This document shows, piece after piece, positions 26,115 to 54,207 of a stretch of DNA of 64,000 bases (positions are counted from its first letter, which is position 1; each line of letters begins with the position of its first letter). Both the position numbers and the translations under genes were made by a program. This stretch comes from Eledone cirrhosa. Lineage: Eukaryota. Under the pieces are notes generated by a model. The model searched no databases and was not told the DNA's origin. It was given only the letters and a program-made list of their open reading frames with translations. The stretch lies in the NCBI GenBank assembly GCA_964016885.1, contig CAXHJY010001768.1, forward strand, positions 124,001 through 188,000, read 5' to 3'.

Positions 26115-29771
<3,657 letters not shown>

Positions 29772-29785
29772 TATATATATAATGA

Positions 29786-30109
29786 TGGAGGCACATGGCT
29801 TAGTGGTTAGAGCATTGGTCTTGCAATCGAAAGGTTGTGAGTTCAATTCTCAGACCGGGTGATGTGCAAGACACTTTATTTCACATTGCTCCAGTTTACT
29901 CAGCTGTAGAAATGAGATGATAGGGACTGGGGTCCCTATCATTCCACTGCAAAGTGGTCGTGGAGGTGCCACGGGAAAAAAAGCACCCACCACTCACTGT
30001 AAATGAGGTTGGTGTTAGGAAGGGCATCCAGCTGTAGAAATCAAGCCAGAATCAGTGTCCGTCCCACCCTTGCAAGCAGGGAAAGCGGACGTAAAATGAT
30101 GATGATGAT

Positions 30110-32047: not shown

Positions 32048-32287
32048 AAATAGGTAGATAGACAGGTAGATAGAGAGATAGAGCAGTAGATAGACAGGTA
32101 AATAGAAAGGTAGATAGAGCAGTTGGTATATAGGTAAATAGAGAGGTAGATAAAGCAGCTGGTATATAGGTAAATAGAAATGTAGATAGAGCTGCAGATA
32201 GAAGGTAAATAGAAAGGTAGAGAGATAAAAAGGCAAATAGAACGGTAGGTAGAAAGATAGATAGAACGGTAGGTAGAAAGATAGATA
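32048..32287. repeat. Degenerate 24-bp GATA-derived satellite units
   Basis: AGATAGATAGAACGGTAGGTAGAA-like units decaying leftwards. Confidence 0.8.
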
Positions 32288-33379
32288 AATTTTTTTATTA
32301 GCCACAAGGGCACAAAAGAAGGGGACAAATACAAATGGGGAGTTTACATACAGGTATATGAAAATAAAACTATTAATACAATAACAAATAACAATTGAAA
32401 TCCCCAATAGGGGGGAGGTGTTACACAGGGGTTGTACACACCCCGTAAAAATGTACAACTCTCATCTCCAGGAGCACCAAGAGTGAGTACTCCCTTCCTC
32501 AATTCCTCTTTTTCCTCAACCTACAGGCTTATATAGAGAGAAGGCCCAACCACTCAGGCCATCTTTGCCACACTCACCCACCTTTTATAAAATTTGCTGC
32601 TGTACAGCACCTCTCTCTCCATCCTGATTCTTCTTCCAAAGTGGTATTTGAAAAAAAGAATCAGTTGTTGGCCGGAGAGAAAGGTGTCTGACATCAACCC
32701 TTTTAACCTCGTCCACCATATAACTTCTTTCACCATAGCCATAACACATAGGAAAACCGCCTCTCCCTCGTTTTTGAAGGAGGGTGGCAGTTTGATCATG
32801 ACAATGGACTCGGTGGTCAACTGGATTGGTCCCACGTGCGACAATAGTCGTTCTACATAGCCCCACAGGTCGGTAGAGCTCCTCGGTAGCACTGCCAGGC
32901 CAGGGACTTTTGGAAGTTGTCCATTAGTCCTGGGCGGAAGGTCCTATAAAAACAGACTGGCCAGTTCGTCCTCCTCTACGCCTAGAGTTTCTCCGAGCGT
33001 GTCGTCGCTCTTGCTGCGGACCAACCCTCTATAGAATGTCGAAGTGGAGTCTCCACTGATCACCGGGTCCGTTTGCCAGAGGACTGTGAGCGCCTGAGCA
33101 CATTCAATGTGCCAGTCGCCCATTTTCCTCGGTCTTTGCTTGACCCAGGACTGCAGCTCGGTCAGCGAGACGAATCGTGGGAAGGCTCGCCTCACGAACG
33201 GGGCCCACACCGGTTGTCTGGTGAGGAATACGTGGAGGTGCCGCAGCCTGAGCGTGTGTTTGCGCATCGTCAGCCACGGCATCCCCAGCCCTCCGTTTGA
33301 AGGGTGTTGGCAGCAGATGGATCTTCTCACCAAAGGAGCCCGTTTCTTCCAAAGGAATTGGAAGAGCGCGCGCTCCACC
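32288..33379 (-). mobile_element. Tx1/L1-clade non-LTR retrotransposon 3' fragment A
   Basis: ERALFQFLWKKRAPLV..HPSNGGLGMPWL ORF2 C-terminal motif; 3'UTR ending AATAAAAAAA; flanked by AGAAAGATAGATA (32275-32287 and 33380-33392); CCHC region deleted relative to fragment B. Confidence 0.85.
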
Positions 33380-35024
33380 AGAAAGATAGATAGAACGGTA
33401 GATAGTAAGATAGAGAGAATGGTAGGTAGTAAGATAGAGAGAATGGTAGGTAGTAAGATAGAGAGAATGGTAGGTAGTAAGATAGATAGAACGGTAGGTA
33501 GTAAGATAGAGAGAACGGTAGGTAGTAAGATAGAGAGAATGGTAGATAGTAATATAGAGAGAATGGTAGGTAGTAAGATAGAGAGAATGGTAGGTAGTAA
33601 GATAGAGAGAATGGTAGGTAGTAAGATAGATAGAACGGTAGGTAGTAAGATAGAGAGAATGGTAGGTAGTAAGATAGAGAGAATGGTAGGTAGTAAGATA
33701 GATAGAACGGTAGGTAGTAAGATAGAGAGAATGGTAGGTAGTAAGATAGAGAGAATGGTAGGTAGTAAGATAGATAGAACGGTAGGTAGTAAGATAGAGA
33801 GAATGGTAGGTAGTAAGATAGAGAGAATGGTAGGTAGTAAGATAGAGAGAATGGTAGGTAGTAAGATAGAGAGAATGGTAGGTAGTAAGATAGAGAGAAT
33901 GGTAGGTAGTAAGATAGAGAGAATGGTAGGTAGTAAGATAGAGAGAATGGTAGGTAGTAAGATAGAGAGAATGGTAGATAGTAAGATAGAGAGAATGGTA
34001 GGTAGTAAGATAGAGAGAATGGTAGGTAGTAAGATAGAGAGAATGGTAGGTAGTAAGATAGAGAGAATGGTAGGTAGTAAGATAGAGAGAATGGTAGGTA
34101 GTAAGATAGAGAGAATGGTAGGTAGTAAGATAGATAGAACGGTAGGTAGAGAGATAGAGAGAATGGTAGGTAGTAAGATAGAGAGAACGGTAGGTAGTAA
34201 GATAGAGAGAACGGTAGGTAGTAAGATAGAGAGAATGGTAGGTAGTAAGATAGAGAGAATGGTAGGTAGTAAGATAGAGAGAATGGTAGGTAGTAAGATA
34301 GAGAGAATGGTAGGTAGTAAGATAGAGAGAATGGTAGGTAGTAAGATAGAGAGAATGGTAGGTAGTAAGATAGAGAGAATGGTAGGTAGTAAGATAGAGA
34401 GAACGGTAGGTAGTAAGATAGAGAGAATGGTAGGTAGTAAGATAGAGAGAATGGTAGGTAGTAAGATAGAGAGAATGGTAGGTAGTAAGATAGAGAGAAT
34501 GGTAGGTAGTAAGATAGAGAGAATGGTAGGTAGTAAGATAGATAGAACGGTAGGTAGTAAGATAGAGAGAATGGTAGGTAGTAAGATAGATAGAACGGTA
34601 GGTAGTAAGATAGAGAGAATGGTAGGTAGTAAGATAGATAGAACGGTAGGTAGTAAGATAGAGAGAATGGTAGGTAGTAAGATAGAGAGAATGGTAGGTA
34701 GTAAGATAGAGAGAATGGTAGGTAGTAAGATAGAGAGAATGGTAGGTAGTAAGATAGAGAGAATGGTAGGTAGTAAGATAGAGAGAATGGTAGGTAGTAA
34801 GATAGAGAGAATGGTAGGTAGTAAGATAGAGAGAACGGTAGGTAGTAAGATAGAGAGAATGGTAGGTAGTAAGATAGAGAGAACGGTAGGTAGTAAGATA
34901 GAGAGAATGGTAGGTAGTAAGATAGATAGAATGGTAGGTAGTAAGATAGAGAGAACGGTAGGTAGTAAGATAGAGAGAATGGTAGGTAGTAAGATAGAGA
35001 GAATGGTAGGTAGTAAGATAGATA
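33380..35024. repeat. 24-bp tandem array (GATAGAGAGAATGGTAGGTAGTAA)n, ~68 units
   Basis: Highly homogeneous units with a few recurring variants. Confidence 0.97.
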
Positions 35025-36196
35025 AGTTTCTTTTATTTGCCACTAGGGCATCAAAAGTGGGACAAGTACAAAGGGGGGAGTTTACACAAAAAGGCGTCCT
35101 CAATAAGGAGGAGGCAATAACAAAATATAAAAATAAAATAAGATATAACAAAAAATAAAATTTTTAACAAAATCCTCAATAGAGAGGAGGCGCCTTGGGG
35201 GGTCGCACACACCCCCGAAAAAAGTGTGCAACCCTTTTCCTCAGGAGCACAGAGAGGGGGTGCTCCCTCGTTCCTTCCTCTTTTCCACCTACAGGCTTAT
35301 GTAAAGAGAAGGCCCATTCACACGGGCCATTCTCGCCACTTTCACCCACCTTTCATAAAAACGACTGGGGTGCAGCACCTCTCTCTCCATCCTGATCCTT
35401 CTTCCGAAATGATATCGGAAGAAACGGACCAGTTGTTGGCCAGAGAGAAAGGTGCCTGACCTCAGTCCTTTCAGACGCGTCCACCATACAACCTCTTTCG
35501 CCATGGCTATTACGCACAGAAACACCGCCTCTGCTTCATCTTTGAAGGGGGGAGGCGGCTTGATCATTACAATAGACTCGGTGGTCAACCGGATCGGTCC
35601 CACCCCTGACAGCAGTTGTTCGACATAGCCCCACAGATCGGCTACGCCCGAGCAGTGTACCAATGCGTGTGCAACGGTTTCCTCGTCGCACACGCATCTG
35701 GGACAGATCTTTTTGGCGGGGTCCCTACCCGGGCGCCCGTGTCTGTAGAGCCTTTCTCGAACGGGTAAAGCCCCTCGGTAGCACTGCCAGGCTAGGGACT
35801 TCTGGAAGTTGTCCATAGGTCCCGGGCTGAATGTCCTACCGAACAGGCTGGCCAGTTCGTCCTCCTCCATGTCTAGGGCTTCTCCGAGGGCGTCGTCGCA
35901 CCTGCTGCGTACCAGCCCTCTATAGAATGTTGCGGTGGAGTCTCCACTGATAACCGGATCCGCCTGCCAGAGGACGGTGAGCGCCTGGGCACACTCAGTG
36001 TGCCAGGCGCCCAGTTTTCTCGGTCTTTGCTTGACCCAGGATTGCAGCTCGGTGAGTGAGACGAGTCTGGGAAAGGTTCGTCTCACAAACGAGGCCCACA
36101 CCGGTTGTCCGGTGAGGAATACGTAGAGGTGCCGTAGCCTTAATGCGTGTTTACGCATCATTAGCCACGGCATCCCCAGCCCTCCTTTCGAAGGGT
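35025..36196 (-). mobile_element. Tx1/L1-clade non-LTR retrotransposon 3' fragment B
   Basis: Open ORF2 C-terminus HPSKGGLGMPWL..WQCYRGALPV..CPRCVCDEETVAHALVHC (CCHC zinc knuckle), stop at 35289, AATAAA 3' end; flanked by GTAAGATAGATA (35013-35024 and 36197-36208). Confidence 0.9.
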
Positions 36197-37418
36197 GTAA
36201 GATAGATAGAACGGTAGATAGTAAGATAGAGAGAATGGTAGGTAGTAAGATAGATAGAACGGTAGGTAGTAAGATAGAGAGAATGGTAGGTAGTAAGATA
36301 GAGAGAATGGTAGGTAGTAAGATAGAGAGAATGGTAGGTAGTAAGATAGATAGAACGGTAGATAGTAAGATAGAGAGAATGGTAGATAGTAAGATAGAGA
36401 GAATGGTAGGTAGTAAGATAGATAGAACGGTAGGTAGTAAGATAGAGAGAATGGTAGGTAGTAAGATAGAGAGAATGGTAGGTAGTAAGATAGAGAGAAT
36501 GGTAGGTAGTAAGATAGAGAGAATGGTAGGTAGTAAGATAGAGAGAATGGTAGGTAGTAAGATAGTGAGAATGGTAGGTAGTAAGATAGAGAGAACGGTA
36601 GGTAGTAAGATAGAGAGAACGGTAGGTAGTAAGATAGAGAGAATGGTAGGTAGTAAGATAGTGAGAATGGTAGGTAGTAAGATAGAGAGAATGGTAGGTA
36701 GTAAGATAGAGAGAATGGTAGGTAGTAAGATAGAGAGAATGGTAGGTAGTAAGATAGAGAGAATGGTAGGTAGTAAGATAGAGAGAATGGTAGGTAGTAA
36801 GATAGAGAGAACGGTAGGTAGTAAGATAGAGAGAACGGTAGATAGTAAGATAGAGAGAATGGTAGGTAGTAAGATAGAGAGAACGGTAGGTAGTAAGATA
36901 GAGAGAACGGTAGGTAGTAAGATAGAGAGAATGGTAGGTAGTAAGATAGAGAGAATGGTAGGTAGTAAGATAGAGAGAACGGTAGGTAGTAAGATAGAGA
37001 GAACGGTAGATAGTAAGATAGAGAGAATGGTAGGTAGTAAGATAGAGAGAACGGTAGGTAGTAAGATAGAGAGAATGGTAGGTAGTAAGATAGAGAGAAT
37101 GGTAGGTAGTAAGATAGAGAGAATGGTAGGTAGTAAGATAGAGAGAACGGTAGGTAGTAAGATAGAGAGAACGGTAGATAGTAAGATAGTGAGAATGGTA
37201 GGTAGAAAGATAGATAGAACGGTAGGTAGAGAGATAGATAGAACGGTAGGTAGTAAGATAGATAGAACGGTAGGTAGAGAGATAGATAGAACAGCAGATA
37301 GTAAGATAGATAGAATGGTAGGTAGAGAGATAGATAGAAGAGCAGATAGAAAGATAGATAGAACGGTAGGTAGAAAGATAGATAGAACGGCAGATAGAAA
37401 GATAGATAGAAGGCTAGA
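36197..37418. repeat. 24-bp tandem array, ~50 units, degenerate right edge
   Basis: Same unit; divergence rises after ~37200. Confidence 0.97.
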
Positions 37419-53759: not shown

Positions 53760-54207
53760 TATATAGAGAGAGAGAGAGTGGGGGGGGGGGGTAATATCCT
53801 AGTGTGTGTGAATATAGAGGGGGGAGAGAAAGAGCAAGGGGTAATTATATCTTAGTATGAAAGTATAGAGAGAGAGAGAGAGAGAGAGAGATAAAGAGAG
53901 AGAATAATATCCTAGTGTGTGAGAGTGTATGGAAAGTGGATAGAGAGGTTTTAGTGTAAGTGTGTGGTGGAGAGAGATAGAGAGAGGAATAGAGGGAGAG
54001 AGAGAGTGAAAGAGATATAGAGGGGAAGAGAGAGAGAGAGGGGAAGAGAGAGATATAGAGGAAGATAGATAGATAGATAGAGAGAGGGGAATAGAGGGAG
54101 AGAGAGAGAGTAAGAGAGAGGGGAAGAGAGAGATATAGAGGAAGATAGAGAGAGAGAGAGGGGAATAGAGGGAGAGAGAGAGTGAGAGGAAGAGAGAGAT
54201 ATAGAAG

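Follow-up and report, generated by a model that had tools for sequence, protein, structure and literature searches.

Two diverged, 5'-truncated LINE copies at the same base of a degenerate GATA array, and a likely preference of their family for GATA/TATC repeats

The window (the whole stretch of 64,000 nucleotides that was analysed) contains an array of 24-bp units interrupted by two minus-strand elements, A and B. The left edge of the array (32048..32236, plus strand) is composed of degenerate GATA-derived units of roughly 12 bp (TRF period 12 and 36), which depart from pure GATA at 2-7 positions in every 12 nt. Two edge-type 24-bp units (32237..32287, plus strand) terminate in the left copy of the duplication that flanks element A (32275-32287). 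Element A (32288..33379, minus strand, 1092 bp) is followed by 68 units of 24 bp (33380..35024, plus strand), which open with the right copy of the same duplication (33380-33392) and whose final bases are the left copy of the duplication of B (35013-35024). Element B (35025..36196, minus strand, 1172 bp) includes the 302 C-terminal codons of ORF2 as an open frame (35289..36197, minus strand). The last segment of 51 units (36197..37418, plus strand) opens with the right copy of the B duplication (36197-36208). The units of the array diverge from their own consensus by only 2-5%. Those of the GATAGATA type represent 24 of the 120 units, and all the array edges are of this type, including the final nine units of the last segment. 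The 24-bp repeat is a degenerate form of (GATA)6, from which the bulk unit differs at 7 positions and the units carrying the insertions at 5, and the array seems to have expanded locally from degenerate GATA.

Both elements are the 3' ends of a LINE of the L1/Tx1 group, truncated in 5', and the endonuclease and the reverse transcriptase are absent from both. The coordinates, strand and junctions given by the first-pass annotation were confirmed on re-examination; A does extend farther than B in 5', by about 75 nt and not 70. An internal deletion of 125 nt in A (32873/32874) has removed the CCHC knuckle, and this copy also carries a 1-nt insertion near 32952 and an early stop. In B, the GGLG motif corresponds to residues 5-8 of the ORF2 fragment and the knuckle CX2CX8HX4C to residues 165-182 (35652-35705); the match to the Pfam zf-RVT profile has an E value of 5.3e-6 and 27.4 bits, for a cut-off of 27.5. 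The signal AATAAA is located at 32294-32299 in A and at 35032-35037 in B, and in both copies 6-7 nt separate it from the target TATCTATC. A poly(A) tail is typical of L1 elements, and A and B, which end without one, depart from the L1 group in this respect. A 3'-terminal stem-loop scored no better in the two elements than in shuffled sequences (z -0.5 and -0.7). A and B are dead copies, with the array as their passive landing site; the term "system" applied to this locus was too strong for two dead, truncated copies.

The named proteins nearest to A and B are from octopods. B is 59-64% identical to full-length proteins combining an endonuclease, a reverse transcriptase and a zinc finger (relatives P0204, P0208 and P0210), and the reverse transcriptase of another relative (P0005) is nearer to L1, with an E value of 3e-50 to human L1 ORF2p and of 4e-24 or weaker to R2 proteins. 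The features of the L1 group (L1 + Tx1), namely an APE endonuclease, a reverse transcriptase and a CCHC knuckle, are all represented, the knuckle in B itself and the two enzymes in its relatives. In the phylogenetic tree, A and B are sisters (100/100) within a clade of Argonauta and Octopus proteins (98/99), and no named Tx1 is found among the tips. The GGLG motif and the CCHC knuckle, which had been taken as the mark of Tx1, are present in B, and this combination is not exclusive to Tx1. The similarity searches brought up no labelled Tx1 reference, and an ESM Atlas search returned only unnamed zf-RVT clusters. A and B are putative members of the Tx1 clade; in the list of bivalve clades, as far as the available portion of PMC10294476 goes, Tx1 alone represents the L1 group. 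The L1-Tx1 elements of Octopus vulgaris, according to the accessible part of PMC13282606, occupy 56.3 Mb and comprise 80 families, 13 of them recently active, and A and B may be among families of this type.

The 3' ends of A and B both meet the array after GATAGATA, at the same phase, strand and nick position. The duplication is of 13 bp for A (AGAAAGATAGATA) and of 12 bp for B (GTAAGATAGATA), as had been announced, except that the first 2 nt of the latter also fit the element (the blastn alignment of A continues to 36198), so that the safe figure for B is 10-12 bp. These duplications are not a by-product of the periodicity of the array, because their length of 12-13 bp is no multiple of the 24-bp period and because each of them puts a minority variant on both sides of the element. 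Both elements show what target-primed insertion leaves behind, a truncated 5' end, an intact 3' end and a target-site duplication, and the 5' joint of B shows 0-2 nt of microhomology. The 5' flanks of A and B are near-identical and both carry a rare 21-nt variant. As previously noticed, the uncommon variant GATAGATAGAACGGTAGATAG follows both 5' ends: it occurs three times within the 64-kb window (33385, 36201 and 36345), and two of these occurrences directly adjoin the elements.

The two elements are clearly diverged from each other, with an identity of 85.8% over 436 nt of the ORF and of 76.5% over 527 nt spanning the distal ORF and the 3'UTR. The 3'UTRs, described as different, are diverged but not unrelated, since they are homologous and have the last ~35 nt in common. 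Over 257 codons, dS is 0.59 and dN/dS is 0.16 (Fisher p 8e-21), and 72 of the 128 differences are at third codon positions. It is hardly credible that A and B stem from a single old insertion, copied along with its flanks through unequal crossover within the array: near-identical 5' flanks and similar lengths would suit such an origin, but the 5' ends are 75 nt apart, the two duplications differ, and the elements have accumulated mostly third-position differences under a dN/dS of 0.16 in an array whose units diverge by 2-5%. This possibility, which had been proposed as a refutation, was rejected on the separate duplications and a dN/dS far below 1; A and B diverged as working elements and thus represent two insertions.

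The sites of A and B match pure GATA at 19-20 of 24 positions, a score reached at 43 of the 2838 array positions (top 1.5%). Only two matches to the family were detected in the 64 kb, both inside the 2.9-kb array (4.5% of the window). In the 58.6 kb outside the array, ATAGATAG occurs four times; the (GATA)4 tract at 54063 has received no insertion. By chance, both insertions would fall in GATAGATA-type units (24/120) with a probability of 0.039 and in the doubly GATA-like variant (3/120 units) with a probability of 0.0004; both tests are post hoc, and since the array edges are all of the GATAGATA type, the units next to the insertions may be ancestral ones that were frozen; this would lower the weight of the minority-unit statistics and leave the phase match unaffected. 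With a sample of two, and with L1-Tx1 elements as abundant as they are in Octopus vulgaris (56.3 Mb and 80 families in the accessible part of PMC13282606), weakly specific LINEs could have piled up in a harmless repeat and shared one base fortuitously. We regard this as very unlikely, given the common phase (1 in 24) and strand, the top 1.5% of GATA-like positions, the concentration in 4.5% of the window and the junction data from other runs.

Four public sequencing runs were examined (X8, X1, which has another organism code, X14 and X11), of which X8 and X1 were informative at the junction. The base 35025 is T in 48 contigs of X8 and in 3/3 contigs of X1, whereas the locus has A, so these contigs represent other copies. 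Their alignment continues past the 3' junction to cover 2-10 bases of the GATA flank in X8 and at least 9 in X1 by depth arithmetic, an indirect measure given that none of the 23 loose-end rows listed, out of 667, lies at the 3' junction, and that the aligner may force short ends. The depth at 35025 is about 40% of that of the next bin in X8 and X1 alike, and the measure covers the flanks of that fraction only. In X8, a loose end corresponds to a diverged copy broken near 35890 and continued by AGACATAGATAG, a sequence that the array does not contain; this hints at a third junction where a 5' end would enter GATA-like DNA other than the 24-mer, with three contigs, a median loose length of 12 and a GATA tail that may come from one contig. 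The raw-read run X14 gave 42 reads, all at an A-rich patch and none at the junction, and run X11 gave no contig over the junction base.

These runs also bear on the idea that the endonuclease reads the 24-bp satellite itself (through a site at least 20 nt long) and that the family inhabits its arrays. Both sites lie in the same rare 21-nt context (3/120 units), which is also compatible with a longer recognition site, one contig type of X8 extends 34 letters from the junction base, and satellite-targeting Tx1 families are known ("Sat" in the Fig. 3 legend of PMC4494074). On the other hand, the summed contig depth is 160,000-1,200,000 over B and 124 (X8) or 0 (X1, X11) on the array-only last bin, a weak comparison in that 34 array bases served as query and summed depth is not copy number. 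In addition, a repeat of pure GATA matches the array flank used as query at 26/35 positions, so that GATA-flanked copies would also align, the third junction is not in the 24-mer, and the array resembles a local expansion of degenerate GATA. We consider a satellite-reading endonuclease quite unlikely. Sequence-specific insertion stands as a preference, which best explains two hits at one base; the claim of the first-pass annotation that the 24-bp satellite is the target finds no support in that form, the unit being a degenerate (GATA)6, the third junction lying outside the 24-mer and the family being far commoner than the array appears to be.

Because the 24-bp unit is a degenerate (GATA)6, both sites are among its most GATA-like positions and, in two of the four runs, other copies appear to continue into the GATA flank, the target is likely the GATA/TATC motif itself, in the manner of Kibi and Koshi, with the 24-mer likely incidental. 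From two fully read sites in one array and one partial junction, we judge it fairly probable that A and B are independent 5'-truncated copies, from sister subfamilies of a likely octopod L1/Tx1-group LINE that targets GATA/TATC microsatellite-type DNA, and that the array was struck twice as a degenerate (GATA)6.

Concerning the mechanism, the junctions and standard target-primed reverse transcription suggest that the endonuclease of a full-length copy located elsewhere, which would be specific for GATA/TATC, nicks the GATA strand after GATAGATA. From the 3' end thus released, cDNA synthesis would start just beyond AATAAA, with no poly(A) tail copied, in keeping with its observed absence; a second nick 10-13 nt off would generate the observed duplication, and synthesis would halt after about 1.1 kb, with joining through the 0-2 nt of microhomology seen for B. 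It is unlikely that the landing in GATA is chosen mainly by the RNA, whose 3' end, reading into UAUC, would anneal to nicked GATA and prime there with a loosely specific endonuclease. Such a choice would agree with the passage, in both copies, from AATAAA and 6-7 nt straight into TATCTATC with no poly(A), and RNA-target pairing is known for other LINEs (PMC6007223, in part). Against it, the 5' junctions are also in GATA DNA with clean duplications, which makes the repeat the target and not merely a tail, and endonuclease swaps between SART1 and TRAS1 alter specificity (excerpt of PMC7265360). Both routes could operate side by side.

Tx1 elements are well known to target repeats; the GATA/TATC target and the host group would be new. 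The excerpts of PMC4494074 and PMC3812793 describe Kibi in (TC)n and Koshi in (TTC)n of teleost fish and crocodilian Tx1 in (TTCC)n/(TTTC)n, which are, like A and B, APE-type L1-group LINEs with the 3' end at the pyrimidine-rich strand of a short repeat, in a fixed phase. A and B differ from them by the TATC/GATA target (their junctions adjoin TATCTATC, neither (TC)n nor (TTC)n), the likely octopod host and the degenerate repeat, and the likeness is one of habit, A and B not being members of Kibi or Koshi. The satellite Tx1 families (PMC4494074, in part) and Xenopus Tx1L, which inserts into Tx1D, also use one base of a longer unit repeatedly; in A and B this longer unit is likely incidental and a 4-nt motif inside it is favoured. 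The available text of PMC4494074 defines a target-specific Tx1 family as one in which a single sequence type flanks over 20% of the copies; bearing on this, 2/2 copies in the window have such a flank, as may one further, partial junction, with indirect support in 2/4 runs. Waldo (ACAY), Mino (AC), Dong (TAA) and Togen (TG) likewise use microsatellites as safe landing sites, but they belong to other clades with other motifs, and none of those listed in the portions of PMC3812793 and PMC4640811 at hand targets GATA. The L1-Tx1 families of Octopus vulgaris belong to the same LINE group as A and B, whose nearest named proteins are octopod; the main text of PMC13282606, from which the word "target" is absent, reports no insertion preference. 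No report of a GATA/TATC LINE target was found in the literature searched, although Kojima and Fujiwara 2004 and the PMC4494074 supplement may add to the known Tx1 targets. We suggest, tentatively, that base-precise targeting of GATA has persisted in an abundant lineage of octopod LINEs across deeply diverged subfamilies (dS about 0.6) and several species, with no poly(A) and an undescribed target; the lineage would be a cephalopod microsatellite-specific APE retrotransposon, a natural GATA-tract integrator. If confirmed, the preference would provide a naturally evolved endonuclease specificity with which the recognition of short repeats by APE domains could be compared, and a candidate site-directed insertion tool for cephalopods; it would partly explain the location of the large octopod LINE fraction, and octopod GATA microsatellite markers may carry LINE flanks.

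No related locus was detected in the scanned metagenome, bacterial genome or viral contigs; 24 metagenome loci with the 19-nt 3'-end motif were dropped, 0/24 matching the element by tblastn, blastn or profile. Translated TATC repeats fused to truncated ORFs were found in 0 of 354 proteins, a result of little weight because gene callers start inside the element. In the public runs, the loose ends at 35299-35314 correspond to subfamilies with other 3'UTRs, and a loose end at 36197 indicates longer copies of the family that extend beyond the 5' end of B.

The 24-bp tandem array at 32048-37418 is composed of about 120 units (68 + 51 + 2) and is broken by two non-repetitive inserts, both on the minus strand: element A (32288-33379) and element B (35025-36196). 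As the first-pass annotation had claimed, both inserts occupy the same base of the array, which is joined directly after GATAGATA at the 3' ends of A and B. The flanking duplications, described there as 12-13 bp long, are of 13 bp for A and 12 bp for B; the first two bases of the latter fit the element too and may represent microhomology. These duplications are genuine, because neither length is divisible by the array period and each copies a minority variant on either side. The variant adjoining both 5' ends is indeed uncommon, with 3 occurrences in the whole window. A poly(A) tail is absent from both elements. The case is real and clean: LINEs inserted here repeatedly and with site precision.

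The open frame of B (302 codons) contains both the GGLG motif and the CCHC knuckle (CX2CX8HX4C) expected from the first reading, and its zf-RVT match is slightly below the Pfam cut-off. A is damaged: a 125-nt deletion takes out the knuckle, 1 nt is inserted and a stop codon comes early. The relatives of B at 59-64% identity are proteins of 1096-1148 amino acids with endonuclease, RT and zf-RVT domains, and one of them matches human L1 ORF2p far more strongly than R2; these similarities indicate that A and B correspond to the terminal 1.1 kb of a LINE of the L1 group. Among named proteins, the nearest are those of Argonauta hians (57-59%) and Octopus sinensis (44%), which makes an octopod host likely. 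A tree of 34 C-terminal regions, none labelled as Tx1, places A and B as sisters (100/100) within a clade of Argonauta and Octopus proteins (98/99). The family is likely Tx1. The proteins P0198 and P0209, filed as Herbaspirillum sp. in NCBI, sit within the octopod LINE clade and are likely of animal origin, misplaced in a bacterial bin.

The divergence between A and B was confirmed, with dS 0.59, dN 0.097 and a ratio of 0.16 over 257 aligned codons (42 codons skipped for gaps and 1 for a stop). Such a ratio marks divergence that arose under selection in active lineages. A single insertion later duplicated would predict identical 5' truncation points; the 5' ends are about 75 nt apart and the two duplications are unlike each other. 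Together with the ratio and the array units, merely 2-5% off their consensus, these differences rule out that scenario, and the two separate insertions stand.

The bulk 24-bp unit corresponds to (GATA)6 with 7 changes, and the units hit by A and B to (GATA)6 with 5 changes. The left array edge is a degenerate GATA-derived 12-mer tract, older than the array, which suggests that the array is a local expansion from a GATA microsatellite. In post hoc tests on the array with the elements removed, both insertion sites match pure GATA at 19-20 of 24 bases, as do 43 of 2838 positions; GATAGATA-type units account for 24/120 and the doubly GATA-like type for 3/120. Since every unit at the array edges is of the GATAGATA type, the units next to A and B may be ancestral ones that were preserved; the common phase and strand of A and B hold in either case. 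Elsewhere in the window, a (GATA)4 tract at 54063-54080, within a GA-rich repeat, is found without attached element.

Part of B is present in 13 public sequencing runs. Four of them (X8, X1, X14 and X11) were aligned to B extended on either side by about 35 nt; X8 and X1, which differ in organism code, were informative, and X14 and X11 gave no information on the junction. In X8, which may be the source run of the window itself, 8590 contigs align to B, 1436 with at least 99%; the family is therefore an abundant one in which young copies occur. Junction base 35025, the 3'-end edge of B against the array, is A at the window locus and T in 48 X8 contigs and 3/3 X1 contigs, which therefore derive from other copies. 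As implied by the depth table, these contigs stay aligned over 2-10 flank bases (X8) or at least 9 (X1), short flank ends being possibly forced by the aligner. About 60% of the 3'-end depth stops short of the junction base. The summed contig depth, which is not a copy number, is 124 in X8 on the array-only last bin versus 285,000 inside the element, and zero on this bin in X1 and X11. Among the 23 of 667 loose ends listed, one of the six from X8 looks like a diverged copy broken near 35890 and followed by AGACATAGATAG, a sequence absent from the 24-bp array. Loose ends at 35299-35314 (X8, X1) correspond to related subfamilies switching to other 3'UTRs just past the stop codon. Of the satellite-targeting system initially proposed, the repeated site-precise insertion is retained. 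As target, a GATA motif is favoured over the 24-mer by the run data taken together, short of proof for genome-wide specificity.

Junction position, duplications, truncation and poly(A) absence were observed directly. By analogy with established target-primed reverse transcription, a nick in the GATA strand after GATAGATA would prime cDNA synthesis from the 3' end of the RNA, and another nick, 10-13 nt off, would produce the target-site duplication. The domain-swap work described in PMC7265360 and a statement in PMC4494074 imply that the endonuclease would set the insertion site. Alternatively, the site may be chosen through the RNA, read-through UAUC repeats annealing to the primer; A and B are without poly(A), and PMC6007223 presents such annealing as proposed in other LINEs. 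It is fairly probable that A and B belong to an octopod family, within the L1/Tx1 group, that targets GATA microsatellites, and such targeting is quite probable when the RNA-annealing variant is counted in.

PMC4494074, PMC3812793 and PMC4640811 report microsatellite targets for Kibi, Koshi and crocodilian Tx1 families, and snRNA genes, transposons and satellites as further Tx1 targets. A and B would resemble the former by their probable microsatellite targeting. The Octopus vulgaris genome annotation includes L1-Tx1 (PMC13282606), with no target analysis in the main text of that article, and Tx1 has zero occurrences in PMC9115989. Neither a GATA/TATC-targeting LINE nor a cephalopod target-specific Tx1 was found in the literature, mostly non-subscription, and an earlier description is possible.

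Five scans of metagenome, bacterial and viral contig collections recovered no related loci, and the 24 metagenome loci from a sixth scan, based on the 19-nt 3'-end motif of A and B, were rejected as unrelated. In L002, L003, L005-L007, L013, L015, L017, L022 and L023, the motif runs into G and A-rich sequence, and the loci contain no ORF matching A/B; they may represent the 3' termini of other animal retroposons, or the motif may recur by chance.

A second, unrelated LINE, presumably RTE-type, lies at 26895-29770 (+) with broken frames, an RVT_1 match (E 7e-29) and a PHD finger; a (TG)n(TA)n tract immediately precedes it and GAT repeats follow. By eye, we observed a directly duplicated segment of about 200 bp (26157-26360 and 26587-26790, spaced 430 bp) between two (TG)n tracts and, at 29785-29845 (+), a putative tRNA-like stretch resembling a SINE head.
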